Positions 1-25,890 of a stretch of 64,000 nucleotides of DNA are shown in pieces (position 1 is the first letter of the stretch; each line of letters opens with the position of its first letter). A model generated the notes under the pieces. It was given only the letters and a program-made list of their open reading frames with translations, was not told the origin of the DNA and did not search any database. A program made the position numbers and the translations under genes. Source of the stretch: an uncultured bacterium (GTDB lineage: Bacteria > AUK180); assembly GCA_937863565.1 (NCBI GenBank), contig CALMGJ010000011.1, positions 1 through 64,000 of the forward strand. Direction: 5' to 3'.

Positions 1-957
<957 letters not shown>

Positions 958-1041
958 AAAGGTTTGAACCTTGATGCTTTGATTGTAAAGCTTAAAAATG
1001 TTTTGTTTTTTAGGAATTGCATCCCTTACCTTTCGCATTGA

Positions 1042-1052
1042 GTCAAAGAACA
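1042..1052 (-). promoter_or_regulatory. rrn antitermination boxA (downstream of proximal promoter)
   Basis: Minus strand reads TGTTCTTTGAC, matching boxA consensus, in the rRNA leader. Confidence 0.7.
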
Positions 1053-1076
1053 GTTTTTTTTATTTTCAAAAAAGTT

Positions 1077-1105
1077 ATTATAGCAAAAAATAAAAAGGTT
1101 GTCAA
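1077..1105 (-). promoter_or_regulatory. rRNA proximal sigma70 promoter (P2)
   Basis: Perfect TTGACA-17nt-TATAAT on the minus strand, with AT-rich upstream sequence. Confidence 0.9.
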
Positions 1106-1166
1106 GCGATTTTTAAAAATATTTTTTTGAGGTGGTCATAAACCCGCAGAGGCTTAGCAGCGGATA

Positions 1167-1177
1167 TTGAAAGAGCA
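1167..1177 (-). promoter_or_regulatory. second boxA-like element (downstream of distal promoter)
   Basis: Minus strand reads TGCTCTTTCAA, preceded by a small GATCA...TGATC hairpin. Confidence 0.55.
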
Positions 1178-1210
1178 AATATATATGGGATCATTTATTG
1201 ATCGCAACAT

Positions 1211-1239
1211 ATTATAATACAATAATGGTTTTAAGTCAA
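1211..1239 (-). promoter_or_regulatory. rRNA distal sigma70 promoter (P1)
   Basis: TTGACT-17nt-TATAAT on the minus strand, with an A-tract (UP-like) upstream. Confidence 0.85.
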
Positions 1240-1438
1240 GGATTTTTTTAATATTTCAGGATGATCCGTCTTATCGGTACCGGATTTCATCCTCATATCT
1301 CTCTAAATATTGGATATACCTTTATTTTCGAGTAAGAATAAGCGGTTTATATGCATTAATAGGGCCGCCCCCGGTTCATTCGGTTTTCCGATTTTTTAGG
1401 GATTTCCATGTAAAAATACCTGCGAACTATAAAAAAAC

Positions 1439-1467
1439 TTGAAAAATACCATAAGTTTTTATATAAT
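1439..1467 (+). promoter_or_regulatory. sigma70 promoter, probably giving a leaderless mRNA
   Basis: TTGAAA-17nt-TATAAT ending 5 nt before the ATG at 1473. Confidence 0.7.
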
Positions 1468-1472
1468 ACCAT

Positions 1473-2129
1473 ATGTTTAACAGATTCGGTAAGTTCTTAT
1501 TCAAGAAAAGAAGCGTGACCCCGCTTCCCTTCATCGTCGTTTTTCCGTTCATCTTCGGAAAAGCCCCTCTCCTATTCCCTGTTGAGGACCCGTTCTGGCT
1601 TCTTGTGATATGCTCTGTTTTCATTATTTACGGTGAGGCGGTGCGTATGGGAGCGGTTTCTTATATCGGGTCCATTTCGCGGACCAGAGGAACTGCAACA
1701 GGGAATCTCATCGTGGACGGGCCGTATGCGCTCTGCCGCAATCCGCTCTATGCCGGGAATTTTTTCATTTTCGCCGGATTCGTTTTCACGGCAAACAATA
1801 TCATCTACATCGCTGCGGCGCTTATACTTTTCTTTATACAGTATCTATACATAATCAAATTCGAAGAAGAAGTACTACGAGAGAAATTCGGAGAGACCTA
1901 TCTCGTCTATAAAAGGTCCGTGCCCTCCATTTTTCCGAGACCCGAGGCTGTTTTTAAACTTGAGAATTACCGCGGATTCAATGCCGGCCGGGCGATTAAA
2001 TCGGAACGATGGACTTTGATCGCGGTCTTATTGTTCATCGCCATTCCTTTTATCTGTTATTATTATTCCCGCGTACTGCCCAGTCCTTTCGACAGGGTTC
2101 TGGAGATCATAACCGGGATTTTTTCCTGA
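1473..2129 (+). CDS. Isoprenylcysteine carboxylmethyltransferase (ICMT/PEMT) family membrane protein
   Basis: LIVDGPYALCRNPLYAGNF and EEEVL...FGETY motifs, plus multiple TM helices. Confidence 0.85.
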   Translation: MFNRFGKFLFKKRSVTPLPFIVVFPFIFGKAPLLFPVEDPFWLLVICSVFIIYGEAVRMGAVSYIGSISRTRGTATGNLIVDGPYALCRNPLYAGNFFIFAGFVFTANNIIYIAAALILFFIQYLYIIKFEEEVLREKFGETYLVYKRSVPSIFPRPEAVFKLENYRGFNAGRAIKSERWTLIAVLLFIAIPFICYYYSRVLPSPFDRVLEIITGIFS

Positions 2130-2955
2130 CCTTCGCAAATCTTTTTGATATTTTCAAATTTCTCTTTGCATTAAGGTAGAAAAGTCCGTCGGCGGTTTTT
2201 TTCCCGTACCGCTCCTTTACCGAAATGTAAAGATCCCAAAGTCCGGAAGGGTCCTCGATGAGAGGTTTATGCATCCCGTCAAAATCGCTGCCTATGGCAA
2301 TACATTCGCCGAATCCTTCCGAAAGTGCGTAATCGATATGCCGGAAGAAATCTTCAAGGGGTCTGCCGTTCCCGAGAAAAGGAAGAAAAAAATTCAATCC
2401 GATCAGGCCGCCTTTTCTTTTGATCGAAGCGGCTTGCCATTTCCTGATATTGCGCGGATGCTCATGAACTTCGCGAAAATTGGAGTGCGTTGCAAGAACA
2501 ACCGATGCTTTTTCAAAGACCTGCTCCGAGGTCCGTTCCGAAGCATGCGAAATATCAACGGCTATATCCATTGCGTTCAATTCACGAATAAGGGATCTTC
2601 CTTCCGCGGTGAGTCCCCGGTTCTTCCCCATGCATCCACCGGCCCATCTATTATCCCTGTTCCATACTAGCGAAACGATGCCGATTCCCCATGTCCTTAT
2701 AAAATCAAGCGCTTCTTCCGTACCGGAGAACGCCGAAAGCCCTTCCAGCGAAAATACATATTCAAGACTGCGACCGAAATGCGGAACCCGGGCCAGGAAT
2801 TTTCTCACATACGCTTCTTTCACTTTCCGTGATTCGCCTTTCAGGAAACAGAATGCGAAATTGATGCCGGCCCTTTTTATTCCCGAAAGCGTTTTTCCAG
2901 AGACGACCGGTTTTCGGGAAAGAGGCGTATCGCAATGGAGATCAATCAATTCCAC
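2107..2955 (-). CDS. Membrane dipeptidase (peptidase M19, amidohydrolase)
   Basis: DLHCDT, SLEG, DISHAS, THSN, HPRNI and IGSDFDG motifs. The likely GTG start is at 2955, overlapping the holB end (the track ORF extends to 3012). Confidence 0.85.
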   Translation of the reverse strand: MELIDLHCDTPLSRKPVVSGKTLSGIKRAGINFAFCFLKGESRKVKEAYVRKFLARVPHFGRSLEYVFSLEGLSAFSGTEEALDFIRTWGIGIVSLVWNRDNRWAGGCMGKNRGLTAEGRSLIRELNAMDIAVDISHASERTSEQVFEKASVVLATHSNFREVHEHPRNIRKWQAASIKRKGGLIGLNFFLPFLGNGRPLEDFFRHIDYALSEGFGECIAIGSDFDGMHKPLIEDPSGLWDLYISVKERYGKKTADGLFYLNAKRNLKISKRFAKVRKKSRL

Positions 2956-13870: not shown

Positions 13871-14638
13871 TCATTTGATCTTTTGCCAATATTTTTCCTG
13901 TTCTTCGATAGTCATCCTCGAAAGCTCCTTCCCGTCCTTTTTCACTGCTCTTTCCATCTTTTTGAACCTTGACAGGAATTTTCCGTTCGCTTTTTGAAGG
14001 GCCTCTTCCGATTCGATACCAAGATGGCGCGCGACATTGACAAAAGTGAACAGCATATCCCCGTATTCTTCTATGATCTTTTCTTTTTTCTTCGACCGTA
14101 CGGCCCTGCGGAATTCGGCCGCTTCTTCATCTATCTTTTCAGCAGCGGATTCCGGACCGGTCCAATCGAATCCGATGCGCGAAGCCTTCTCCTGCATGCG
14201 GAAAGCTTTTAAAAGCGCCGGCAGTGAGGCGGGCACTCCCGCGAGCGCAGAACGCCCGTCTTTTTCCCGGTTCTTGAGCCGCTCCCAGTTTTTCAGCACA
14301 TCTCCCTCACCCTTCACCTTGATCGCGCCGAATACGTGCGGATGCCGTCTAATGAGTTTTTCATTTACTCCGGAGATGACATCGGCATCTTTTATCTTAT
14401 ATTCCTTTTCTGCAAGTTCCATCATGAAAATGGCAAGAAAGAAAAGGTCTCCGAGCTCTTCTTTTATCCCGTCTCGGTCTTTTTTCTTGACCTCCTCCAC
14501 AAGTTCATAACATTCCTCGATTATATGCTTCGCCATGCTTGAAAGCGTCTGTTTTCTGTCCCACGGGCATCCCTTTTTCCCGAGAAGGCGTTTTATCGTT
14601 GAGACAAGCTCATCTAAGGGTTCTTTTTTCGATCTCAT
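13871..14638 (-). CDS. mazG: Nucleoside triphosphate pyrophosphohydrolase MazG (tandem domain)
   Basis: GCPWDRKQT, EELGDL, KLIRRHPHVF, GFDW and EEYGDMLF motifs. Confidence 0.95.
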   Translation of the reverse strand: MRSKKEPLDELVSTIKRLLGKKGCPWDRKQTLSSMAKHIIEECYELVEEVKKKDRDGIKEELGDLFFLAIFMMELAEKEYKIKDADVISGVNEKLIRRHPHVFGAIKVKGEGDVLKNWERLKNREKDGRSALAGVPASLPALLKAFRMQEKASRIGFDWTGPESAAEKIDEEAAEFRRAVRSKKKEKIIEEYGDMLFTFVNVARHLGIESEEALQKANGKFLSRFKKMERAVKKDGKELSRMTIEEQEKYWQKIK

Positions 14639-17063
14639 TTATCAGCTCCTTCCATTCGGGATATTTCGCATGCAGCTCTTCCTTCTGCAGGCCTCTCTTC
14701 TCTATGTATGAGGATATCTTCCTGACAGGAAGTGGAGCAGGCAGCATTTCTATTTCATAATAGCACGAAGAGGCGATAAGGTCGGCATAAACCGTGTTCA
14801 GCCGGGACGGGTCGGTCGTTCCTGAAATGATGCGTTTAAGTATGGCAAGCGCTTCCGCGTGCGCCGAGTTCTTAGCAAGAAAAACGGCTTTTTTAAAATA
14901 CAGCTCGGCGGAATTCGGGACTATTTTTAGAAATTCATTAATGTATTCTATCTCGAACCTGCTTCCCATTCTCGCGCAGACCGAAATGAGATTATTCAAT
15001 ATCAGTTTCTTCTCGCCGATATTGCCCATCTGCTCTGCCGTTTCCAGAGCGCTCTGGAAACCGGTGAGCGAACCGTGAAGATCTCCGCTTTTATATCTTA
15101 AGAAAGCCCTCTGCTTTTGTGTGTAAAGTCTGGCCTTTAGTATCTCTGCCGCAAGCTTTTCCTTTCTCTCCCCCTCGATATAGATAAGGGAGGACTCAAG
15201 AAGTTCAACGCTTTTCTCTACTCTTGAAAGCAGTTCTCCGAACGGCGGATCAAGGATATCCTTCAGGGCAGAGGTCACCTCGGTAAGCTGTATCAGGGCA
15301 GGAAGATTGAACGGTTCTATTTCTAAGGCGCTTTTCAGGTATTCCTCGGCAAGGCCGAGCTGTCCCAATTTGGTATAGCCGACACCGATATTGTACCGTA
15401 TTTCATAGTAGGCAGGTTTTAGTGCGTCGGCCGCTTTAAGATGGGATATGCCTGTTTCAATGAGTTCCCCAGAGCGGTTGTCCGGCGTTTTTTTCTGGGC
15501 CAGCATCAGAAAATCATTGCCGAGCTGATAGTGAGCATGCACCGAACGGGAATCCCATTTCAGCGACATTTCGAGCTCTCCGATCGACCGCATTATCGCA
15601 TCTTCGTTCATATCTTTCGCATTGAGCTGATAAAGACCCGCACCCCTGGAAAGGTGAAATGAGCCCTTGAGGTTTTGCACTCTTATGAAAAGGATGAGCG
15701 CGATAAAAGCGGCAAAAAGCGCCAATACTTTTCTTGGAACTCTGAAGGAAGAACGTATACCGGATGTGAAAATACCCAAAGAGACGGCGAACAATGAGAG
15801 CGCGGGTTCATAATTCAGGACCACGGATATCAGATTATCCGCATACATCAGTATGAACATGAAAAGGAACGCTTCCTTAAGCGGTTCCGGTTTTTCCCGG
15901 CGCGCCAAGAACACGGCGCACAGGAAAATGAAGATGTACCATAAGAATCCGGGGACCGATCCGTTGATCGCCCATTCGAGCGCCTGATTGTGCGGATGCC
16001 TTGCATGAGTGGAGAGATTGACGAGATGTTCGTCATTCAGGAACCGGGCCTGGTATTCGGGGTAGAACATCCTGAATCCGGCATATCCGAGACCGAGTGG
16101 TTTTTCCTTTACTATGGAGAGCGCGGTTTTCCACATGAGGCTCCGCTGGCCGACCGAGCCGCTCTGCTCCTTCAACTGACGCGGTATATTGAGAAGCCTT
16201 TTTGATGTAGAGGGTATTACAAGGGCGGTGACGGCCATCGCCGCAAGGAAAGCGAGCAGAGCGTATTTTTTCCTGTAGAGGATGAATAGGAATGCGGTAA
16301 GAGCGAAAGCAAGGAGCACTCCTCTCGTTCCGCTGCCGATAATTGAAAGAAATTCAATAAGAAAGGCGGCAAGAAGAAGCGGAGACCTTTTTGTCATGTA
16401 TGTGTAAAATGTCAATCCCATTATCCCCAGCATATACCCCGAGTAGAAGTTCGGATTCCCCAGCGTGCCGACTATCCTTTGGGAAAAAGGTTCCGAATAT
16501 TTCCGCGCAGGCATAAGCGGATCAAGGCCGGCCCATTGCATGAGACCCCATAGCGCAAGGATCACGCCGGAGTACATTAAAAAACCGGCGAAACGTTCTT
16601 TATCGCGTATATTCTTAGCAAAAAAATAAATGCATACGAAGCCCTGGAAATGTATGACGAATTCGGCGAAGCGGTCTGACAAATGACCGTTCAGGGAGAA
16701 CAGGCACGTCAGAAAGACGCCTGAGACGATCACGATATCGAATAATGAAAAACGCAGCTCTTTCTTTTTTGTCAGATATGACGCAAAAAGGGCCAAGAGA
16801 AAAACGCTGAACACCACTTCTTTCACAAGATACGGATTATATGTCGCGAACCAGAAGAAAAAACCCAATGAAGCAAGGGCGGCGGCTAAAATCCGGTCCG
16901 CCGTATCCTTGAGAAATATTCCGGCGGGGATGCAAAAGAGAAAGAAGAAGAGCGCCGTGATTAGAGGAAGCCGGCCCAGGCCGGGGATCAAGAACGCAAG
17001 AAGGAGAAGAAGGCCCGAAAGAAGCGCAGCAAAGAGCGTCGTCGTTCTGTTAAATAAGCGCAT
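14610..17063 (-). CDS. O-antigen ligase/O-oligosaccharyltransferase (Wzy_C) family membrane protein with C-terminal TPR-like repeats
   Basis: Many TM helices with GTLGNPN, SGTRG, R..MWK.AL...KEKPLGLG and HPHN motifs. TPR-like helices follow (AHYQLGNDF, IRYNIGVGY...ALEIEP). Confidence 0.82.
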   Translation of the reverse strand: MRLFNRTTTLFAALLSGLLLLLAFLIPGLGRLPLITALFFFLFCIPAGIFLKDTADRILAAALASLGFFFWFATYNPYLVKEVVFSVFLLALFASYLTKKKELRFSLFDIVIVSGVFLTCLFSLNGHLSDRFAEFVIHFQGFVCIYFFAKNIRDKERFAGFLMYSGVILALWGLMQWAGLDPLMPARKYSEPFSQRIVGTLGNPNFYSGYMLGIMGLTFYTYMTKRSPLLLAAFLIEFLSIIGSGTRGVLLAFALTAFLFILYRKKYALLAFLAAMAVTALVIPSTSKRLLNIPRQLKEQSGSVGQRSLMWKTALSIVKEKPLGLGYAGFRMFYPEYQARFLNDEHLVNLSTHARHPHNQALEWAINGSVPGFLWYIFIFLCAVFLARREKPEPLKEAFLFMFILMYADNLISVVLNYEPALSLFAVSLGIFTSGIRSSFRVPRKVLALFAAFIALILFIRVQNLKGSFHLSRGAGLYQLNAKDMNEDAIMRSIGELEMSLKWDSRSVHAHYQLGNDFLMLAQKKTPDNRSGELIETGISHLKAADALKPAYYEIRYNIGVGYTKLGQLGLAEEYLKSALEIEPFNLPALIQLTEVTSALKDILDPPFGELLSRVEKSVELLESSLIYIEGERKEKLAAEILKARLYTQKQRAFLRYKSGDLHGSLTGFQSALETAEQMGNIGEKKLILNNLISVCARMGSRFEIEYINEFLKIVPNSAELYFKKAVFLAKNSAHAEALAILKRIISGTTDPSRLNTVYADLIASSCYYEIEMLPAPLPVRKISSYIEKRGLQKEELHAKYPEWKELINEIEKRTLR

Positions 17064-17892
17064 CGAGATATTCGCCCTTTTTGAGAACCGCGGAAAATGC
17101 GGGGAGTCCCGACAACTTTTCGATGATATCCATCTGAGACCTTACAGCGGGAGGGCTCACCGGGATGAGTGAATAGGATAGAATCCTCTTGAAGACCTCT
17201 CTGGCAGGGATGTCTGTCACTGTACTGCTTTTTCCGAAACCGTCAAGAAAATAAAGTGCTTTAATTCGCTTTTTCTCCGAGCAGTACATGTCCCTGCTCA
17301 AGACGCGGTCCACGGGGAGGGCCGCTTTTTCTCCCTCCGTGCCCGGGACCTCCCCCGGGAATAATTCTAAAAGCGCATCTTTTTTCAAATGCAGCGGTTT
17401 AAGAAAAGGGTGGGCAAAAAGATCGCTGTCAATAACGGCGGTGTCGTCTCCGAGAAGAGGTCTTCCCCGCAGAGCAAGGCGGACCGCATTTGAACTTTTT
17501 CCGCTGCCGCTGTTTCCGAAAACAAGCACCGCATCTCCGCCTTCGGCATTGGCGCCGGCATGCGCGGTGAAATATCCGAATATCCTGAGCGAAATCTCGA
17601 ATATCGGGGTCATGATGAACTGATGAAAATAGCTCTGATCCCAGTTCTCATTCATATTGCCCGCGAAAGAAACCCGCCTTTCGGATCTTTCTATCATCAC
17701 ATAGAATATCCCGTCAAGCAGCAAGTAGATTTCATTCCCCTGATGCCATATCTTGAGCTTCCGCTCTTCATGGGATGGGACCAGGCCTTTCATATCCGGA
17801 TAGTAGCCCAGATCGAGGTTTTTCGTATCGAAGAACCTGATAAATATTTCCCGGCCTTCCGGTTCACTGTTCTTTTCTGGGAAAAACGACAA
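17050..17892 (-). CDS. HPr-kinase-related P-loop kinase (type found in RiPP/lasso clusters)
   Basis: AHAGA...VLVFGNSGSGKS...LLGDD motifs. The start is uncertain: TTG at 17892, or ATG at 17981 across a homopolymer frameshift. Confidence 0.8.
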   Translation of the reverse strand: MSFFPEKNSEPEGREIFIRFFDTKNLDLGYYPDMKGLVPSHEERKLKIWHQGNEIYLLLDGIFYVMIERSERRVSFAGNMNENWDQSYFHQFIMTPIFEISLRIFGYFTAHAGANAEGGDAVLVFGNSGSGKSSNAVRLALRGRPLLGDDTAVIDSDLFAHPFLKPLHLKKDALLELFPGEVPGTEGEKAALPVDRVLSRDMYCSEKKRIKALYFLDGFGKSSTVTDIPAREVFKRILSYSLIPVSPPAVRSQMDIIEKLSGLPAFSAVLKKGEYLDALI

Positions 17893-17939
17893 GATCCACT
17901 CTTTGACAAGAGCAGATCCGGAGAAATAATTGATTGCTG

Positions 17940-17972
17940 AAAAACTCAGCGGTTTCTTAAAAAAAAACCGCT
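17940..17972 (-). terminator. possible hairpin/terminator after the precursor gene
   Basis: AGCGGTTT-loop-AAACCGCT followed by GAGTTTTT on the minus strand. It could alternatively be coding sequence of the kinase N-terminus. Confidence 0.35.
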
Positions 17973-18024
17973 ATCCGACATTTGTTCAAGTATAAGGAAA
18001 GTTTCCTTGATACCTGCGCTCACC

Positions 18025-18180
18025 TTAGCCCTTGATCGCGGGGGGTTCGCCTGTGCACCTGGTAAGGGTACAGTCAGCCGAATTTGACGTACCTTCGAGT
18101 GCAACGGTTGCTGTCGTTGACTCTCTTACTTTATTGTACTTTATCAGTACGGGTTTTTGGTACTTCTTTCGAATATTCAT
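18025..18180 (-). CDS. RiPP precursor peptide, 51 aa: MNIRKKYQKPVLIKYNKVRESTTATVALEGTSNSADCTLTRCTGEPPAIKG
   Basis: Translated by hand. GGAGG SD lies 6 nt upstream. The leader has a lasso-type YxxPxL motif with Thr at Y+15. The gene sits between the rSAM and kinase genes, near the RRE and B2 protease. Confidence 0.88.
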   Translation of the reverse strand: MNIRKKYQKPVLIKYNKVRESTTATVALEGTSNSADCTLTRCTGEPPAIKG

Positions 18181-19210
18181 CCAAAACCTCCATTTTTATT
18201 TCCGTTAATCTGCATTTCTGCAGAGAGGGTGTGAACGGGTCTTTCATTTCCGCTTCGTTCATGCCCGGACAAACTCTGCAGTGATTTTTCAATCTGCATT
18301 TCATACATTTTACGAAATTATCATCATTGAAGTCAAGTATTTTTTGAAGATTTTTTGATTTTTCCCATAATTCCTTGAATTGCGTTGTTTTTAAGCTTCC
18401 CAGAGGCCGGCGCCAGACAATGCAGGGTAGAAGATCGCCGTTCGGTGCGATGGCAGCAGTAGATCTGCCGGCCGTGCACATGATGCGGGCATCCTTTTTC
18501 GGTTCCGCCTCAAATTCCGTCCAAAGGCTGTCCGAACCTGACATTTTTATCCGGAATCGTTCTGCGAATTTCACTTTATCTGAACTTGCAAGGTAATTCA
18601 GGGGACAGAAAGAACCCGAATCCGTGACGAAAAGTATCTCATCGAATGTGATCAGAAAACCGTTATCCCTGGCATACTTGTAGACCTTAGGGAGTTCCCA
18701 GGCATTGAAATCAAAGATCATATACTTCAGCCGGAGAGGAAGTCCGTGCTCTTTCATTAATCTGAACACTTCCATAAGTTTTCTGAAACTTCCGGGCACG
18801 CCCGTAACTTTGTCATGCGTTTCTTCTTTGATTCCGTAAATGCTGATATCGATATTCCGCAAACTGAGAGATTTCAATTTTCTTACGGAATTTTCATCAA
18901 GGATATAGCCGTTGGTGAAAACGGTCGTTGAGAACCTGAGATCTACGGCGGCGGCGAGAATTTCCCAGATATCCTTTCTCAGGAATATCTCTCCTCCAGT
19001 AAAAGCAAGTTCCAAGGTGCCGGCTTCCCTCAATTCCTTCAGTATACTGATCACCTTTTCCGTTCCGAGCTCCTCGGTATCCCTGATGTCCCTGACGCAG
19101 TGTATGCAGTTAAAATTACAGCGGTGAGTCAATTCGAAATTGATCGAAACAGGTATCCTATTATCGATTATCTTCTGTTGGATCTTTTTAAAATCGCCTG
19201 TTCCGCTCAT
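18131..19210 (-). CDS. Radical SAM/SPASM peptide maturase
   Basis: CNFNCIHC and FTGGE motifs. The SPASM domain reads C-x12-G-x4-C...CMKC-x5-C-x2-C...C (7 Cys). Confidence 0.93.
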   Translation of the reverse strand: MSGTGDFKKIQQKIIDNRIPVSINFELTHRCNFNCIHCVRDIRDTEELGTEKVISILKELREAGTLELAFTGGEIFLRKDIWEILAAAVDLRFSTTVFTNGYILDENSVRKLKSLSLRNIDISIYGIKEETHDKVTGVPGSFRKLMEVFRLMKEHGLPLRLKYMIFDFNAWELPKVYKYARDNGFLITFDEILFVTDSGSFCPLNYLASSDKVKFAERFRIKMSGSDSLWTEFEAEPKKDARIMCTAGRSTAAIAPNGDLLPCIVWRRPLGSLKTTQFKELWEKSKNLQKILDFNDDNFVKCMKCRLKNHCRVCPGMNEAEMKDPFTPSLQKCRLTEIKMEVLDEYSKEVPKTRTDKVQ

Positions 19211-19602
19211 CTGAACTCTCCCAATTTTTCGTATCTTTCGGCCGTGTTATCCGGCTCGAACATTATATGACTGCATTTTTCAAGCCACATATGCCCGGAT
19301 ATGCGTCCTTTCAACCTTTTTACGCCAAGAACAATATATATATCCGGATGGCGGTGTTTCAAATACGCATAACCGAGATAGGTATATCTTACACAGTTCC
19401 CGCAGAAAATGTTCATTCCGAACACCGTTTTGTACAGGATCCCGCTGATCGTCCTCATTATGTCTTCGTCGGAGAAACCGAAAAGGAGAACGGGTAATTT
19501 TTTTAAGGTCCGGACGATCCGTTTCGGTCCAAGATCGAAAAAGATCATTATCTCTATCAGTGTCAGCGTTAAGACCATTTCCAGTTTGAGTACCGTTCTC
19601 AC
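19207..19602 (-). CDS. Lasso peptide B2-type transglutaminase-like leader peptidase
   Basis: NCVRY...YIVLGVKR...GHMWLE: Cys/His catalytic motifs of the Transglut_core3 type. Confidence 0.85.
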   Translation of the reverse strand: MRTVLKLEMVLTLTLIEIMIFFDLGPKRIVRTLKKLPVLLFGFSDEDIMRTISGILYKTVFGMNIFCGNCVRYTYLGYAYLKHRHPDIYIVLGVKRLKGRISGHMWLEKCSHIMFEPDNTAERYEKLGEFR

Positions 19603-20003
19603 TTCTCTTTTTCGATGATCTTCTCGCTGATAAGGTCCGCGACAATATACGCGATATCAGATCTTAGGTCCGTCCGCTCGATCTCTTTTCCGTATTCCGT
19701 ATAAAGGCTGCCCTCGATCTCGGAAAATGACATCTTCTTCTCTATCATGTCAAAGATCTCGGTCCCCATCTCGTTCAGGCTGTAGTAATACTGGTTCTTG
19801 TTATTGTAAAGGACTATTTCCCCGTCAAGTTCATTGTACATGATATCCCTGCAAACCCTGAATTTGTCTTTAATATTGAACTTGATACGATGCCCCTCTA
19901 TTTTAACGGCGAGGTCTCCCGTAGCATCATTCATCTCAAGTTCGGTCTTTTTTTCGTTGTCTTCCGGTCTGCTTGGTCCGTTCGTTCCATTTTCACCTTG
20001 CAT
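19599..20003 (-). CDS. PqqD family RiPP recognition element (RRE)
   Basis: ELDGEIVLYN...YYSLNEMGTEIFDMI...L..EY...DI...V.DL....II pattern, with an AAGGAG SD. Confidence 0.88.
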   Translation of the reverse strand: MQGENGTNGPSRPEDNEKKTELEMNDATGDLAVKIEGHRIKFNIKDKFRVCRDIMYNELDGEIVLYNNKNQYYYSLNEMGTEIFDMIEKKMSFSEIEGSLYTEYGKEIERTDLRSDIAYIVADLISEKIIEKEK

Positions 20004-21465
20004 GTTCTTTCTCCTTTATTCCGAGCATAGCCTGCCCTATCATTATTCGTGAAAAATCCTTTCTCTCTACCTGAAGTACTATCTCGCCTTTGAACATTAC
20101 GGCGATATCATCGCAGATCTTGAGCAGTTCTTCGAGCTCAGTAGAAAAAATAAGTATCGCCTTGCCCATGTCCCGGGCCTCCATCAGAAGGTCGTGAACA
20201 AAGCGAACACTTGCAAGATCGAGGCCGCGCGTCGGGTTCTTGGCAATGATCACCTGTTTATCCGCAGAGAATTCCCTGGATAAGATGAATTTCTGCTGAT
20301 TGCCCCCCGAAAGCGACGAAGCAGGGGCAGAAGCGGACGGATACTTAACTCCGTAGTGTTCCATCTCTTCTATCATCTTTTTCTTCTTCCCTTTCCTGTC
20401 GATCATCCCTCCCGGGCCGGGTTTTAAATTTTGCGGTGAAAGAAGATAGTTCTCCGAAAGAGGCATTTCCGGGACAAGCGCTTCCGTTGTTCTATCCTCC
20501 GGGATCAGGGCAATGCTCTGCCTGAGCGATCCGGAAACATCGCGCCCGTCCAGAAATATTTTTTTTATTCCATCTGCAGCTCCGACGATCACGTCGAAGA
20601 ATTCTTTCTGGCCATTACCTTCGATGCCGGCGATGCCGAGTATCCTCTTTCTATGAAGTTTCAGATCCTTGATGTTCAAACGCCTCTTTTTGTATACCTG
20701 TTCGAACACGATATACGGTTCCTCGCCCGGAGCGGTATGGTCATACTGCTTTTCCTCGCATTTGAACAGTATGTCTATCAGGTGCTTTTCAGAGACCTCG
20801 GAAGCGCGGAAGTCTCCGAGGACCTTGCCTTTCGACATAGCGATCACCCGCGTGGAGACCTCGAAGATCTCAGATAATTTGTGAGTAATGAAAATGATAG
20901 TTTTGCCGGAAGCGGCAAGTTCCCTGAACACCTTATAAAGACCTTTAATCTCTTCTTCGGCAAGAAGGGCAGTAGGTTCATCGAAGATCAGAAGTTCATA
21001 ATTCTTGTAAAGCAGTTTCAGAAGTTCCGTCTGCTGTTTCTCTCCGACGGAGATCTCGCCTGCTTTCCGTTCCAGGTTTACGGTCAATCCGTATTCCCTT
21101 TTCAGCGACTCGAGCTTTTTAACATACTCTTTTTTATTCAGGAAAGGGCGCCCGCCTTCGGCACCGAGTACTATATTCTCCCAAACCGTGAAATTGTCGA
21201 TGAGAAGCAGATGCTGATGGACCATGCCTATGGAAAGCTCCCGGGCCTTGACCGGGTCGAGCGGAAGAATGCTTTTCCCGTTCACAAGGATATCCCCGGA
21301 ATCGGGACCGTAAAGGCCTGTCAGCATTCTGACAAGCGTTGTTTTCCCCGCGCCGTTCTCTCCGAGAATGCTTACGATCTCCCCTCTGTCGAGCGTGAAC
21401 GATATTCCGTCATTCGCCTTAAGATCGCCGAATGTTTTCGAGATATCCAGAATCTCAATCTTCAT
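19993..21465 (-). CDS. Nucleoside/sugar (CUT2) ABC transporter ATP-binding protein
   Basis: GENGAGKTT, VHQH, FDEPT, LSGGNQQK and NPTRGLD motifs in a two-domain ATPase. Confidence 0.92.
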   Translation of the reverse strand: MKIEILDISKTFGDLKANDGISFTLDRGEIVSILGENGAGKTTLVRMLTGLYGPDSGDILVNGKSILPLDPVKARELSIGMVHQHLLLIDNFTVWENIVLGAEGGRPFLNKKEYVKKLESLKREYGLTVNLERKAGEISVGEKQQTELLKLLYKNYELLIFDEPTALLAEEEIKGLYKVFRELAASGKTIIFITHKLSEIFEVSTRVIAMSKGKVLGDFRASEVSEKHLIDILFKCEEKQYDHTAPGEEPYIVFEQVYKKRRLNIKDLKLHRKRILGIAGIEGNGQKEFFDVIVGAADGIKKIFLDGRDVSGSLRQSIALIPEDRTTEALVPEMPLSENYLLSPQNLKPGPGGMIDRKGKKKKMIEEMEHYGVKYPSASAPASSLSGGNQQKFILSREFSADKQVIIAKNPTRGLDLASVRFVHDLLMEARDMGKAILIFSTELEELLKICDDIAVMFKGEIVLQVERKDFSRIMIGQAMLGIKEKEHAR

Positions 21466-22465
21466 CCGCTCCTTCCAGGTTTATCCGTATCTTGCCGCTT
21501 ATGATATCCCTTTTTATCTGTTCCACTTTTTCTATGATACCGGCATCAAGGAGGTCCTTATTATATTCATCGAGCGCATATCCAACCGCATCCTCCGCCA
21601 GGCCAAGCGCTACGGGGCCCGGTCTGAATTCTCCGTCCTTCAATTCCTTTATCGAGAAGTACACCGCCGTATCAACTCTTTTTATCATGCTCGTAAGGAC
21701 ATAGCCGGGCGCCAGGTAGTTCTGGTTCGAATCTACGCCTATGGCGAATTTTTTATTCTTTTCGGCGGATTTGATGACTCCGTTGCCCGTCGAACCGGCC
21801 GCGTGAAACACGATATCGGCCCCTTTTGAGAAAAGCGTATCTGCGAGGAGCTCTCCCTTTGTGGGATCGTGGAATGCCTCCTGGCCCGAACCGGCATATG
21901 TGATCTCCACTTTTATTTCAGGATCGATGTATCTGGCTCCCTGTATATAACCGAGTTCGAATTTTTTGATAAGCGGGACTTTCATCCCCCCAACGAACCC
22001 GATGTGTTTCGTTTTCGTTTTCAGGGCCGCAATGACCCCTACGAGGAAAGAACCCTCTTCTTCCTTAAAGATCAGGGATTTGATATTCTCGCCTTCGCAT
22101 ACGGTATCGATGATCACGAATTTTGTTCCCGGATAGAGTTTGGCCGCATCCGTTATCGAAGCGCCCATAAGGAAACCCACGCCGATGACGAGATCGCATC
22201 CCATCGATGCGAATGATGAAAGGTATTTCTTATCCTCGGACATTTTAGCCGGCTGGCCCAGATTGATATCGACGGATAATTCCTCTTCCGCCTTTTTCAG
22301 CCCGCGGTATGCGGAATCGTTGAAGGATTTATCTCCGAGGCCGCCCACGGAAAGCACCATGCCCACTTTGGGATTATCGGTCACGGCTGTATTTTTCTTC
22401 TCCGAACATGACATCAACACGAGCAGGCAGCAGATAACAACGGCCATTTTGGCGGATCTATTCAT
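21455..22465 (-). CDS. BMP family (PnrA-like) nucleoside-binding lipoprotein
   Basis: Lipobox LMSC, GGLGDKSFN, GADIVFHAAG.TG.G, IGVDSNQ and TSMIKRVD. The start is approximate. Confidence 0.92.
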   Translation of the reverse strand: MNRSAKMAVVICCLLVLMSCSEKKNTAVTDNPKVGMVLSVGGLGDKSFNDSAYRGLKKAEEELSVDINLGQPAKMSEDKKYLSSFASMGCDLVIGVGFLMGASITDAAKLYPGTKFVIIDTVCEGENIKSLIFKEEEGSFLVGVIAALKTKTKHIGFVGGMKVPLIKKFELGYIQGARYIDPEIKVEITYAGSGQEAFHDPTKGELLADTLFSKGADIVFHAAGSTGNGVIKSAEKNKKFAIGVDSNQNYLAPGYVLTSMIKRVDTAVYFSIKELKDGEFRPGPVALGLAEDAVGYALDEYNKDLLDAGIIEKVEQIKRDIISGKIRINLEGADED

Positions 22466-23243
22466 AATACCTCTTGACCAGGCCATCGGCAAGGTCTAAT
22501 CCTTTTATTATTTGATTTTTTTTATGCATTTCCAAAACAATGCGGGGAGACGGGATCAGCGTGGCCATCTTCTCGAATAAAGCCGGAAAATCGATCGTGC
22601 CGTCACCCGGCGGAAGGTGGGCATCGCAATCGCCTGCATTATCGTGAAGATGAACTTCGATGATATCCGTACCGAGCGTGTCCAGCCATACGGATAGCGG
22701 GGCGTGCGAAAGAAAATGGGCATGTCCCGTGTCGAAACAGATGCTCAACGGATGAACTTCACAAAGGCCGTCGAAGATCCTTCTGAACGTATCGGGATCC
22801 CTTTCAAAAACATTCTCGATGAGGATATGCGCACCTTGCCTTTTTTCAAGCACGCCGGCGAGGAACCGTCGGGCATTTTCGAGCCATCTTTTTTCCATCT
22901 CGGGGACCTGCACTTTTTCGAACAAATATCCCGTATGCAGCACCACTGCGAGCGAGCCGAGATGCTCGGCGATGTCCAGCGCGGCATTGAGACGCCGCGC
23001 ATATATCTCCGTAAAATGAGGATCGTCCGAGCCCAGATTGATCTCTTCCCAGGGAGCGTGAATAGTGGTTTTAAATCCTTCCGCCGCTTTTTTCAGATCG
23101 GAGATATCCTTCTCTTCCAGTTTACATATCCTGTATCCGCTTATGTATATCTCAAAACCGCAAAGCCGGGGATGTTTTTGGGCTTCATCGCTCCACCATG
23201 GTATCTCCCTGTAAGGAAGGTGCGAATAGAGCCCGGGCCTCAC
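22458..23243 (-). CDS. Sugar phosphate isomerase/epimerase / AP-endonuclease-2 TIM barrel protein
   Basis: HAPW, VLHTG, IEN, CFDTGH and HLHDN..DAHLPPGDG motifs. Confidence 0.85.
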   Translation of the reverse strand: MRPGLYSHLPYREIPWWSDEAQKHPRLCGFEIYISGYRICKLEEKDISDLKKAAEGFKTTIHAPWEEINLGSDDPHFTEIYARRLNAALDIAEHLGSLAVVLHTGYLFEKVQVPEMEKRWLENARRFLAGVLEKRQGAHILIENVFERDPDTFRRIFDGLCEVHPLSICFDTGHAHFLSHAPLSVWLDTLGTDIIEVHLHDNAGDCDAHLPPGDGTIDFPALFEKMATLIPSPRIVLEMHKKNQIIKGLDLADGLVKRYYE

Positions 23244-24190: not shown

Positions 24191-25013
24191 TGCCCAACTC
24201 TCTCATCGCCTTCTCATACTCTTTTTTTCCGATGGGCTTGCCGTGCCATGAGGGATCGCCTTCCATAAAAGATACGCCCTTTCCCTTTATTGTATCAAAG
24301 ATCAGCACTGACGGACCGGGCGAACCGGCGGATCCGGAGAAGACATCGCGTATGGACCCCATATCATGCCCGTTCCCGGTATACACCTTCCAACCTAGCG
24401 AGCCGAACCGCTCAGGGACAGGCTCCTTGTTCTTGACATCCCCGCATGAACCGTCGATCTGGTACCCGTTGCGGTCCACGATCGCGGTGATGTTCGAAAG
24501 ACCGTAATGCCCTGCGGTGGCAGCTGCCTCCCATATCTGTCCTTCATCCAGTTCCCCATCGCCGAGAAGACAGTACACCCGGGCGGGCGATCCGTTCCCC
24601 GAGAGGGCGAAAGCCATTCCGTTGCCTATCGAAAGGCCCTGGCCCAGCGAGCCCGTGCTCGCATCGATGCCTTTCAATTTCAGCATATTGGGGTGCCCCT
24701 GCAGTGGCGAACCGAGGCGGCGGAGCGTGAAGAGGTCTTCTTCCGGAAAATAACCGCAAAGCGAAAGCACTGCGTATAGAGCCGGGCATACATGGCCCTT
24801 GCTGAGGATGAACCTGTCTCTGCCCACATCGCCGGGAGAGCCGGGATCATGCCGCATCACATTGAAGTACAGGTATACCAGAATATCAATGCATGAGAGG
24901 CTCCCTCCGGGATGGCCGGATCCGGCCTCGTATATCATTTTGATGATCAGCCTTCGGGCGGCGCGCGCCATGCCTTCAAGCTCGACGGTTTCGAGTTTTA
25001 CCGGATATTCCAT
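24180..25013 (-). CDS. Transketolase, N-terminal (TPP-binding) subunit
   Basis: GHPGGSLS, DRFILSKGH, LQGHP, GSLGQG and GDGELDEGQ motifs. Confidence 0.95.
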   Translation of the reverse strand: MEYPVKLETVELEGMARAARRLIIKMIYEAGSGHPGGSLSCIDILVYLYFNVMRHDPGSPGDVGRDRFILSKGHVCPALYAVLSLCGYFPEEDLFTLRRLGSPLQGHPNMLKLKGIDASTGSLGQGLSIGNGMAFALSGNGSPARVYCLLGDGELDEGQIWEAAATAGHYGLSNITAIVDRNGYQIDGSCGDVKNKEPVPERFGSLGWKVYTGNGHDMGSIRDVFSGSAGSPGPSVLIFDTIKGKGVSFMEGDPSWHGKPIGKKEYEKAMRELGNER

Positions 25014-25890
25014 TTAAAACCTCTGAGAAATGATATCTTCCTTCTCGTGATATCCTTGTTCACAAAATCGAAACGTCTCTCCCTCATCTCCATCGAGGCG
25101 CTTTCATAGATCCTGCCGTTCTGCGAGAACGAGTACCAGTAATATCCATCTGTTTTAAAGCGTTTCACGAAACTGCCAAGATGTTTCTCGAACCTGTTTA
25201 TATAACTCTGGTTGATCGAAAGGATATTCCACAAAAGCGATATGCCTTTTATCTTATCTTCATTGCCCATATATTCGGAGGAGATATCCGATACATATGT
25301 CCTGTCCGCGCCGAGAAGGTATGCGAACGATACCGGGATATTGACGAGAAAACCCCCGTCAACGAATATCCCGTCTTCAAAAGGATAAGGAGGGAAAACG
25401 AGCGGGATCGATACGGCAAGCGTCAAGATCTTGGAAATGGGTCCCTTCTTAAAGACCGTAAGGGAGCCGGTCGTGAGATCTATGGCGGTAATATATACCG
25501 GTATCTTCAGATCCCTGAGGTCTGCATCCCCGAACGTATCGGAGAACATCTTCTCAATTTCACCGCTTTCGAACACGGACGGTCCCGTGAAAAGCTTCGC
25601 TTCGGAAACGACCTTCTGGGTGAAGGAAAAGAAATTCCGCTCCTTGATAGACGAGTAGAAATCCTCGATCTTGGCAAGGATCGGGAGATCGAAGAATTCG
25701 AAGGCCTTTTTGGCTGTTTTCTTCAGGTCTCCGTCATAGAAGCCGTAAAGGGCTGAGCACAGGGCTCCCGCAGATGATCCGATGAGGGCGTCCGGTTCGA
25801 TCCCCGCGTTCTCAAGGAACGCGATATGGGCTATCCCCTTTGCACCGCCCCCGGCGAGAACGAAAAACTTTTTTTTTTAAAAAGACCCAT
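24998..25890 (-). CDS. Patatin-like phospholipase, frameshifted in an A10 run just after the start codon
   Basis: The frame upstream of the track ORF reads VLAGGGAKG...GSSAG, and DGG occurs downstream. The ATG at 25890 is one base out of frame at the homopolymer 25869-25878. Confidence 0.85.

Follow-up and report, generated by a model that had tools for sequence, protein, structure and literature searches.

The five-gene cluster and its 51-codon gene

We analyzed a short open reading frame (ORF) and the genes around it in a 64,000-nucleotide stretch of DNA from an uncultured bacterium (positions 1 to 64,000 of contig CALMGJ010000011.1), hereafter called the window. The ORF belongs to a cluster of five tightly packed genes on the minus strand, which encode, in this order, a PqqD/B1-type protein, a B2-type protein, a radical S-adenosylmethionine (rSAM) enzyme with a SPASM domain, the 51-amino-acid product of the ORF, and an HprK-like kinase. 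The ORF occupies positions 18025..18180 of the minus strand, and its product is MNIRKKYQKPVLIKYNKVRESTTATVALEGTSNSADCTLTRCTGEPPAIKG, followed by a TAA stop codon. The Shine-Dalgarno sequence GGAGG is located at 18187..18191 on the same strand, 6 nt (TTTTGG) before the ATG at 18180 and inside the rSAM coding sequence, and the ORF overlaps the rSAM ORF (18131-19210, minus strand) by 50 nt. A preliminary description of this DNA, made from its letters, had presented the ORF as unannotated. The coordinates, translation, GGAGG spacing, and 50-nt overlap that it gave were exact, but an identical protein was already present in the public protein collection, derived from a contig of 234,215 bases. A homolog with 78% identity carries the NCBI name 'hypothetical protein'. 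The peptide contains Y7, P10, L12, and T22, with N16 at the position where lasso peptide leaders carry Gly, and consists of a predicted leader (residues 1-23, 18112-18180) and a predicted core (residues 24-51, 18028-18111). The predicted core contains the pair C37-x4-C42, seven Ser/Thr residues, and no aromatic residue, and ends with Gly. All of these residue details are as described earlier. The ORF is present as a single copy in the genome.

We compared the locus with those of related genomes. An ortholog of the rSAM gene was present in eight of the nine genomes examined from the small candidate phylum to which the window belongs, and was not found in the remaining one (G005, 91% complete). 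In another genome (G003), the contig ends within the rSAM gene, so that the DNA after it is unreadable. In all seven loci with readable DNA (the window and L002-L007), a 51-amino-acid ORF was located in the same place, directly after the rSAM ortholog, bearing out the expectation of the preliminary description that short ORFs would lie beside rSAM homologs. The peptides of these loci were 53-80% identical to that of the window, and the rSAM orthologs were 42-59% identical. The GGAGG sequence before the start codon was retained in 7/7 loci, although it lies within the rSAM reading frame. When substitutions were counted by the method of Nei and Gojobori, the proportions of synonymous (pS) and nonsynonymous (pN) differences between the window and L002 were 0.93, with synonymous sites near saturation, and 0.17, respectively. 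In the peptide frame, pS exceeded pN in all 21 pairs, with pN/pS ratios of 0.11-0.62. By contrast, pS exceeded pN in just 5 and 3 of the 21 pairs in the other two frames. The conserved location in every readable locus, the excess of pS in the peptide frame alone, the conserved Shine-Dalgarno sequence, and the single copy number indicate that the 51-codon ORF is a real gene under purifying selection. An overlapping ORF of 52 amino acids (17946-18104, minus strand) was rejected as coding, because pN was equal to or higher than pS in most pairs in the off-frames. In the relatives, the peptide ORF overlaps the rSAM gene by just 26, 23, or 4 nt. The 50-nt overlap is particular to this genome because the tail of the rSAM protein in the window is a non-conserved extension.

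The degree of conservation differed among the products of the cluster. Compared with L007, the identities were 53% for the peptide, 42% for the rSAM enzyme, 35% for B1, 24% for B2, and 24% for the kinase. The peptide was thus the best-conserved product, and its core was conserved as well as its leader. Both families of the phylum hold the cluster in the same context, with genes for a Bmp-binding protein and an ABC ATPase on one side and genes for a Wzy_C-tetratricopeptide repeat (TPR) protein and MazG on the other. Taken together with the features described below, we consider that the ORF is, with a probability of roughly 70%, the precursor (A) gene of a pathway for a peptide made by ribosomes and modified after translation (RiPP), in which the leader module of lasso peptides is reused without a lasso cyclase. 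The analysis assigns a conserved and concrete substrate candidate to a previously uncharacterized rSAM/SPASM enzyme.

We next examined how widely the peptide occurs. A scan using one genome per species detected six loci, all in metagenome-assembled genomes labelled Atribacteria, 'bacterium', or Mcinerneyibacteriota, and a word-indexed protein search with the peptide found three proteins, the window's own included. In a scan of metagenome contigs for the peptide pattern, 188 matches were obtained, none of which was confirmed. When 1.84 billion representative proteins were searched exhaustively with a profile, eight were found at E <= 1e-3, of which five short peptides (46-72 amino acids) were kept. 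P0010 was dropped because it is a eukaryote-type repeat protein in which only a leader-like stretch (YTKPEVV) matches, and the very long proteins P0011 and P0012 were dropped by length and their multi-stretch pattern alone. Among nine close members, the residues Y7, K9, P10, L12, K14, Y15, T22, E29, G30, T31, C37, L39, R41, C42, E45, P46, K50, and G51 were invariant. A 10-sequence alignment that includes four of the five short peptides, as distant members, was also prepared. In this alignment, Y7, P10, L12, Y15, C37, L39, C42, P46, and K50 were still invariant, and K9, T22, E29, G30, T31, and G51 were kept in at least 90% of the sequences, T22 and G51 each in nine of ten.

A probable lasso-type leader module

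Leaders of lasso peptides follow the motif YxxPxLxxxGxxxxxTx, in which the Thr is at position -2 relative to the cleavage site. The preliminary description had recognized a leader of this type in the peptide. This view was sustained by the invariance of Y7, P10, L12, and T22 in 9/9 close members and by the presence of a B1-like RiPP recognition element (RRE) and a B2-like protease in the cluster. At Y+9, where the window has Asn and other members have Asn or Glu, the distant members P0013 and P0014 have Gly, the canonical residue of lasso leaders.

The B1-like protein, a discrete RRE of the PqqD type, is encoded at 19599..20003 (minus strand), with a conserved domain at 19599-19865 (Pfam PqqD, 1e-8). 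Translation probably begins at an internal Met, since the first ~45 amino acids are not conserved. The best NCBIfam model was lasso_PqqD_Bac, the Bacillus-type lasso PqqD chaperone (2.2e-10, below the cut-off). When a profile of the orthologs was compared with the PDB, it matched TbiB1 (3.6e-12), 9x90, a lasso peptide biosynthesis PqqD family chaperone (7e-10), and TfuB1 (2.6e-5). On the basis of these profile matches, lasso B1 proteins are the nearest solved relatives of the discrete PqqD protein. We also predicted the structure of B1 in complex with the peptide. The complex had a score of 0.48, compared with 0.02 for the best control, with agreement between runs of at least 85% of contacts and a partner predicted local distance difference test (pLDDT) value of at least 48. 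Of the solved complexes, 116 of 157 attained the mark applied, as did 2 of 215 mismatched pairs, and the score falls in the range (<=0.60) in which just 18 of the 157 solved complexes and both passing mismatches attained it. The pass may also reflect likeness, lasso B1-leader complexes being among those solved. The discrete PqqD/B1 protein quite probably binds the leader through the invariant Y7-x-x-P10-x-L12 and delivers the peptide to the rSAM/SPASM enzyme, a protein that itself lacks an RRE.

The adjacent gene (19207..19602, minus strand) encodes a protein of 131 amino acids that we regard as a lasso B2-type transglutaminase-like cysteine protease and the predicted leader peptidase, with C70/H104/E116 as the candidate triad. 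C70, H104, and E116 were invariant among the orthologs, with a spacing of 12 from the His to the acidic residue. Five of six B2 orthologs matched NF033537 (lasso_biosyn_B2), with a best value of 1.3e-12, and NCBI lists those of the phylum's second family (f2), which carry PF13471, under the name 'lasso peptide biosynthesis B2 protein'. In lasso peptide biosynthesis, cleavage follows the Thr(-2) rule, which is the basis of the site predicted here. Guided by the Thr at -2, the Cys/His/Glu protease would likely remove the leader after residue 23 (T23), to leave a core of 28 amino acids starting with ATVALEGT.

Several results weigh against this assignment of the leader module. The distant member P0014 does not have Thr at -2, and the score of the B1-peptide complex amounts to weak support. 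The B2 protein of the window itself matched NF033537 only at E 6.8e-4, with 20 bits against a cut-off of 33, and the B2 profile matched no PDB sequence at E <= 1. A Foldseek search with the AlphaFold model of B2 (pLDDT 87.9) gave weak matches, with a best E value of 0.04. This list was headed by transglutaminase-like cysteine proteases (vasohibin, PeiP, and LapG; E 0.04 or worse). In a wide VIA-align search, Z values were 6.4 or lower, and transglutaminase-like proteases were scattered among unrelated helical matches. In addition, the third residue of the triad is Glu, and that of lasso B proteins (McjB-type triad) is Asp. The membership of B2 is based on sequence profiles and not on fold searches.

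We then considered whether the peptide could be a true lasso peptide that relies on a cyclase gene in another part of the genome. Its leader, B1, and B2 are lasso-like, and an acidic residue is fixed at the predicted core position 6 (E29; Glu in nine and Asp in one of ten sequences). The genome, which is 95.5% complete, contains four Asn_synthase homologs on other contigs. One of them is a divergent Asn-synthase-like protein of 596 amino acids without the N-terminal glutaminase part (L031, contig C37 of G000, 817-2607, plus strand). However, a lasso cyclase (Asn-synthetase-like) was absent from the cluster in all loci read, and the rSAM gene takes its place. All four homologs were far below the cut-off of the lasso cyclase model NF033535 (42-215 vs 525 bits), three of them pass the cut-off for asparagine synthase, and they are located beside glycosyltransferase genes. 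The divergent protein at L031 was below both cut-offs (118 vs 267 bits for asparagine synthase and 42 vs 525 bits for lasso cyclase), and its gene is close to a second AsnB homolog, in a region rich in glycosyltransferase genes. The ring of a lasso peptide is closed at an Asp or Glu at core position 7-9. The acidic residue of the peptide is at position 6, outside these ring sizes, and the next one, D36, is at position 13. With no cyclase and with its acidic residue at position 6, the peptide fails two defining features of lasso peptides, while it has the leader and B1/B2 features. A true lasso peptide is therefore extremely improbable. What the precursor system has in common with lasso biosynthesis is the discrete B1, the B2-type protease, the YxxPxL leader, and the invariant Thr at -2. 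It differs in the replacement of the cyclase by an rSAM/SPASM enzyme, in the acidic residue at core position 6, and in the Glu of the triad. The cluster would accordingly be a natural hybrid, in which a lasso module for leader recognition and cleavage serves non-lasso chemistry. If true, the B1/B2 pair would be a portable leader-handling cassette, useful for RiPP engineering.

Such combinations have been noticed before at the level of the RRE. In the passages of the RRE-Finder report that concern them, ~300 lasso-type discrete RREs located beside rSAM enzymes are treated as false positives of the lasso model (PMC7470986). One group of these RREs would now have a defined precursor, protease, and kinase. 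No paper on a cluster of B1, B2, rSAM enzyme, and kinase was found in keyword searches of the literature. The supplementary networks of RRE-Finder and the rSAM-RiPP compendium PMC10288494 may list the family.

The radical SAM enzyme, the kinase, and the core

The rSAM/SPASM enzyme (18131..19210, minus strand; 359 amino acids) contains CxxxCxxC at positions 31/35/38 and seven SPASM Cys residues, a complete set (Pfam Radical_SAM, 6e-22; SPASM, 1.6e-8). An N-terminal RRE domain is absent, which fits the need for a discrete B1. In comparison with the PDB, the best match was SkfB, a thioether-forming sactisynthase (2.7e-21 over residues 15-289), and PqqE ranked lower (4.5e-14).

Relatives of the enzyme were collected by scanning metagenomes with the rSAM alignment, which yielded 79 loci encoding enzymes 25-41% identical, and five genome loci brought the total to 84. 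Profile searches over these loci gave 40 B1-like and 22 kinase-like matches, and the B2 profile had no match at E <= 1. In 21 of the 66 metagenome loci with at least 300 nt downstream, a small ORF containing [YF]x[KR]Px[LIVMF] was located right after the rSAM gene. The motif was found in 26 of 233 nearby small ORFs, compared with 28 of 4506 elsewhere. We also counted the C-terminal residues of the peptides in loci with both a kinase and a peptide. For this count, two entries (L109 and L035_4825), which are among the few in the ORF list that probably matched by chance, were removed by hand, and the genome locus L010 was added. Among the resulting 16 loci, 12 had a peptide ending with Ser, 3 one ending with Thr, and 1 one ending with neither, but the loci represent about seven distinct peptide groups with some duplicates and are not independent. 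None of the related loci reached an NCBIfam cut-off, and the kinases matched HprK_rel_A/B or ScmC weakly. A signal-peptidase-I-like gene follows the precursor gene in L010.

A quick tree was constructed with 59 rSAM enzymes, for which 54 of the 84 loci were used and loci with matches to fewer than 280 positions of the profile were excluded. The five enzymes of the window family formed one branch (SH-aLRT support, a Shimodaira-Hasegawa-like likelihood ratio test, of 90). No sister group can be named because the backbone is unresolved, with 25 of 55 inner branches open. The YxKPxL leader is thus common to PqqD-dependent rSAM cassettes in general, and what sets the window family apart is its B2 protease, its Thr at -2, and its Lys-Gly end. 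Of the leader-handling features, the B2 protease and the Thr at -2 alone are particular to lasso systems; the preliminary description had not mentioned how widely the leader is shared. Judged by its genes, the collection (L033-L111 and L010) is a large uncharacterized radiation of cassettes with an HprK-like kinase, PqqD, and an rSAM/SPASM enzyme. The window cluster shares with the HprK_rel_A/B, GeoRSP, and SynChlorMet ScmC/E/F cassettes a kinase, PqqD, an rSAM/SPASM enzyme and a small peptide, as well as the gene order and the leader motif. It differs from them in that B2 is unmatched there, their precursors end with Ser/Thr in 15 of 16 kinase-linked loci, the rSAM enzymes of the window family are on a separate deep branch, and their cut-offs are not reached here. 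No experimental paper on HprK/PqqD/rSAM cassettes was found in the keyword searches. The YxKPxL precursors, mostly ending with Ser or Thr, suggest phosphorylated rSAM-modified peptides as an unexplored class of products.

These cassettes also bear on the possibility that the ORF encodes a conserved small protein which is itself unmodified, such as a subunit with an accessory or regulatory task in the rSAM enzyme or the kinase. The peptide is unusually conserved for a RiPP core, exceeding the rSAM enzyme and B2 in the comparison with L007, as a subunit might be. On the other hand, its leader motif matches the type of RRE encoded two genes upstream, and its Thr at -2 matches the type of protease. 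Furthermore, the same leader motif, in the same position, is followed by unrelated cores in related rSAM cassettes, which is a hallmark of substrates rather than of subunits. We consider an unmodified subunit to be very improbable, and continue with the ORF as a RiPP precursor.

For the chemistry of the core, the enzyme would link C37 and C42 to carbon atoms nearby in one or two thioether bridges, with the conserved E29-G30-T31, D36, and E45 as candidate acceptors. C37 and C42 were the most strictly conserved core residues, with Cys donors in the cores of 10/10 sequences. Because of the invariant CxxxxC pair, the core without aromatic residues, the Cys-rich cores of related cassettes (mostly with 2-4 Cys), and SkfB as the closest solved enzyme, thioethers were favored over cyclophanes, which the lack of aromatic residues disfavors, in line with the preliminary description. 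Thioethers from C37/C42 are the most likely chemistry of the cluster, and we propose them tentatively, at slightly less than even odds. The cluster resembles sactipeptide and ranthipeptide maturation systems in having an rSAM/SPASM enzyme, matched by the AlbA, SkfB, StsB, and PapB models, beside a small Cys-bearing precursor. It differs in that the matches are far below the cut-offs, the RRE is separate and of the lasso type rather than an N-terminal domain, a B2-type peptidase and a kinase are present, and the thioether is predicted.

Other results count against thioethers and leave room for a precursor modified in a different manner, such as by epimerization, another C-H functionalization or cross-link, or conversion of C37 to formylglycine. 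The CxxxxC pair would then form a disulfide or bind a metal. The enzyme reached no curated NCBIfam cut-off, with scores (cut-offs in parentheses) of 97 (400) bits for GeoRSP_rSAM, 91.5 (400) for ScmE, 89 (850) for AlbA, 78 (300) for SkfB, and 72 (625) for StsB. The AhbD, NirJ, PqqE, GeoRSP, WgkB, MftC, AlbA, and SkfB models were matched about equally through the core domain, so that the matches are spread over chemically diverse SPASM enzymes. In the related cassettes L036 and L034, the cores contain no or one Cys and were counted as Cys-free, which indicates that the radiation of the enzymes is not tied to Cys. L036 carries four tandem Cys-free precursors. Among the proposed acceptors, E45 was lost in the most distant members. 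The core sequence C37-T-L-T-R41 (18061-18075, minus strand) resembles the formylglycine motif of sulfatases, C-x-P/A-x-R, which is the target of another family of SPASM enzymes. However, R41 was also lost in P0013 and P0014, the two members most distant from the window, and an anaerobic sulfatase maturase was not among the 17 PDB matches of the enzyme at E <= 1e-5. The strict conservation of both Cys residues and the thioether-forming activity of the closest solved enzyme also argue against a non-thioether modification, which we consider unlikely.

The last gene of the cluster (17050..17892, minus strand) encodes an HprK-like P-loop serine kinase of 280 amino acids with GNSGSGKS and GDD motifs. 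It matched HprK_rel_A (1.1e-7; 31 bits, cut-off 200) and Hpr_kinase_C, both below the cut-offs. G131, K132, H111, and D149 were invariant among the orthologs. Look-alikes of the kinase in the ESM Atlas belonged to 'serine kinase / HPr kinase / ScmC' clusters, with a score of 0.96. In paeninodin-type lasso clusters, the kinase (PadeK) phosphorylates a C-terminal Ser. The cluster resembles these in having an HprK-like kinase and differs in the Lys-Gly end of its peptide, which has no Ser there. The earlier proposal that the kinase target is not a C-terminal Ser agrees with the invariant K50 and with G51 in 9/10 sequences, compared with Ser/Thr ends in 15/16 kinase-linked cassettes. The Lys-Gly end of the window family implies a kinase target different from that of related cassettes. 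T31 was the sole nearly invariant hydroxyl residue in the core. The kinase might phosphorylate an internal hydroxyl, with T31 as the best candidate, unlike the C-terminal Ser of the paeninodin-type clusters or related rSAM cassettes; this step is possible, and less secure than the thioethers. The occurrence of HPr kinases in lasso clusters is noted in the pertinent part of a 2014 survey (PMC4289311).

We finally considered the role of the product. No exporter or immunity gene was present in the cluster. Together with the peptide being the best-conserved product, this suggests that the end product may have a conserved function in the cell and not be a variable antibiotic. The near-universal presence of the cluster in a small candidate phylum likewise hints at a physiological rather than an antibiotic role. 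The pattern of conservation recalls SCIFF, PqqA, or MftA more than a hypervariable bacteriocin. As in the pyrroloquinoline quinone (PQQ; PqqA/D/E) and mycofactocin (MftA/B/C) systems, there are a small conserved precursor, a PqqD-type chaperone, an rSAM/SPASM enzyme, no exporter, and vertical conservation. The cluster differs from these systems in that its scores are far below the cut-offs, a Glu/Tyr or Val-Tyr target motif is absent, and B2 and the kinase have no counterpart there. A conserved physiological role of the product is a speculative proposal that we hold to be rather unlikely. The same guarded estimate applies to the fuller picture of a lineage-wide, vertically inherited peptide-derived factor related to a cofactor, signal, or envelope function, in which the lasso cyclase was replaced by an rSAM/SPASM enzyme, B1/B2 were kept for leader recognition and Thr(-2)-directed cleavage, and the internal T31 is phosphorylated in place of the C-terminal Ser of its relatives.

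Flanking elements and neighboring genes

A terminator-like hairpin with a U tract is located at 17947..17973 (minus strand), 52 nt after the stop codon of the peptide gene. It has 12 pairs and may act as an attenuator between the genes for the precursor and the kinase. The predicted RNA fold had an energy of -14 kcal/mol (z -2.8), and equally stable folds were obtained in 3 of 200 shuffles. In a hairpin scan, the region was not enriched over shuffles (8 vs 5.7 +/- 2.7). A terminator-like hairpin at this position would fit an excess of precursor transcript. A T9-AAGAAAC element after the peptide stop codon (17935-17985, minus strand), which forms the hairpin in the window, was conserved in the relatives of the first family (f1; L002-L005). 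In these relatives, the element lies inside an ORF of 30 amino acids (MDTLQVIT...FFLRNSFRF). This ORF was rejected as a gene, since only 11 codons from an in-frame ATG are present in the window, and the stretch was read as a conserved RNA or terminator element. An Rfam search over 16500-21700 gave no match at E <= 0.1.

Downstream of the kinase, a gene at 14610..17063 (minus strand) encodes a Wzy_C (O-antigen-ligase-like) and TPR membrane protein of 817 amino acids, identified with Pfam, and shares 14 nt with the end of the kinase gene. The kinase gene is likewise followed by an ortholog in L023, L024, L025, and L027, which cover both families of the phylum. The ortholog in L027 was 26% identical (E 2e-52), with a 4-nt overlap with the kinase gene. 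The Wzy_C and TPR gene is a conserved neighbor that may belong to the operon or be merely syntenic. A MazG gene is also located downstream of the cluster.

Upstream, a frame for a patatin-like phospholipase was found at 24998-25889 (minus strand). The frame is open from 25876 down, and a full-length ortholog in L022 was matched over residues 6-291 with 42% identity in a single frame. Upstream of it, the sole ATG (25889-25887) is shifted by one base relative to this frame, with ten consecutive A residues (25877-25868) in between. A homopolymer error in the assembly, a phase-variable tract, or a frameshift could account for the break. Directly before the peptide cluster, genes for a Bmp-family binding protein and an ABC ATPase are located at 19993-22492 (minus strand), with no adjoining permease genes. 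The order of binding protein, ATPase, and B1, which is not seen in L025, was also observed in L022-L024, L026, and L027.

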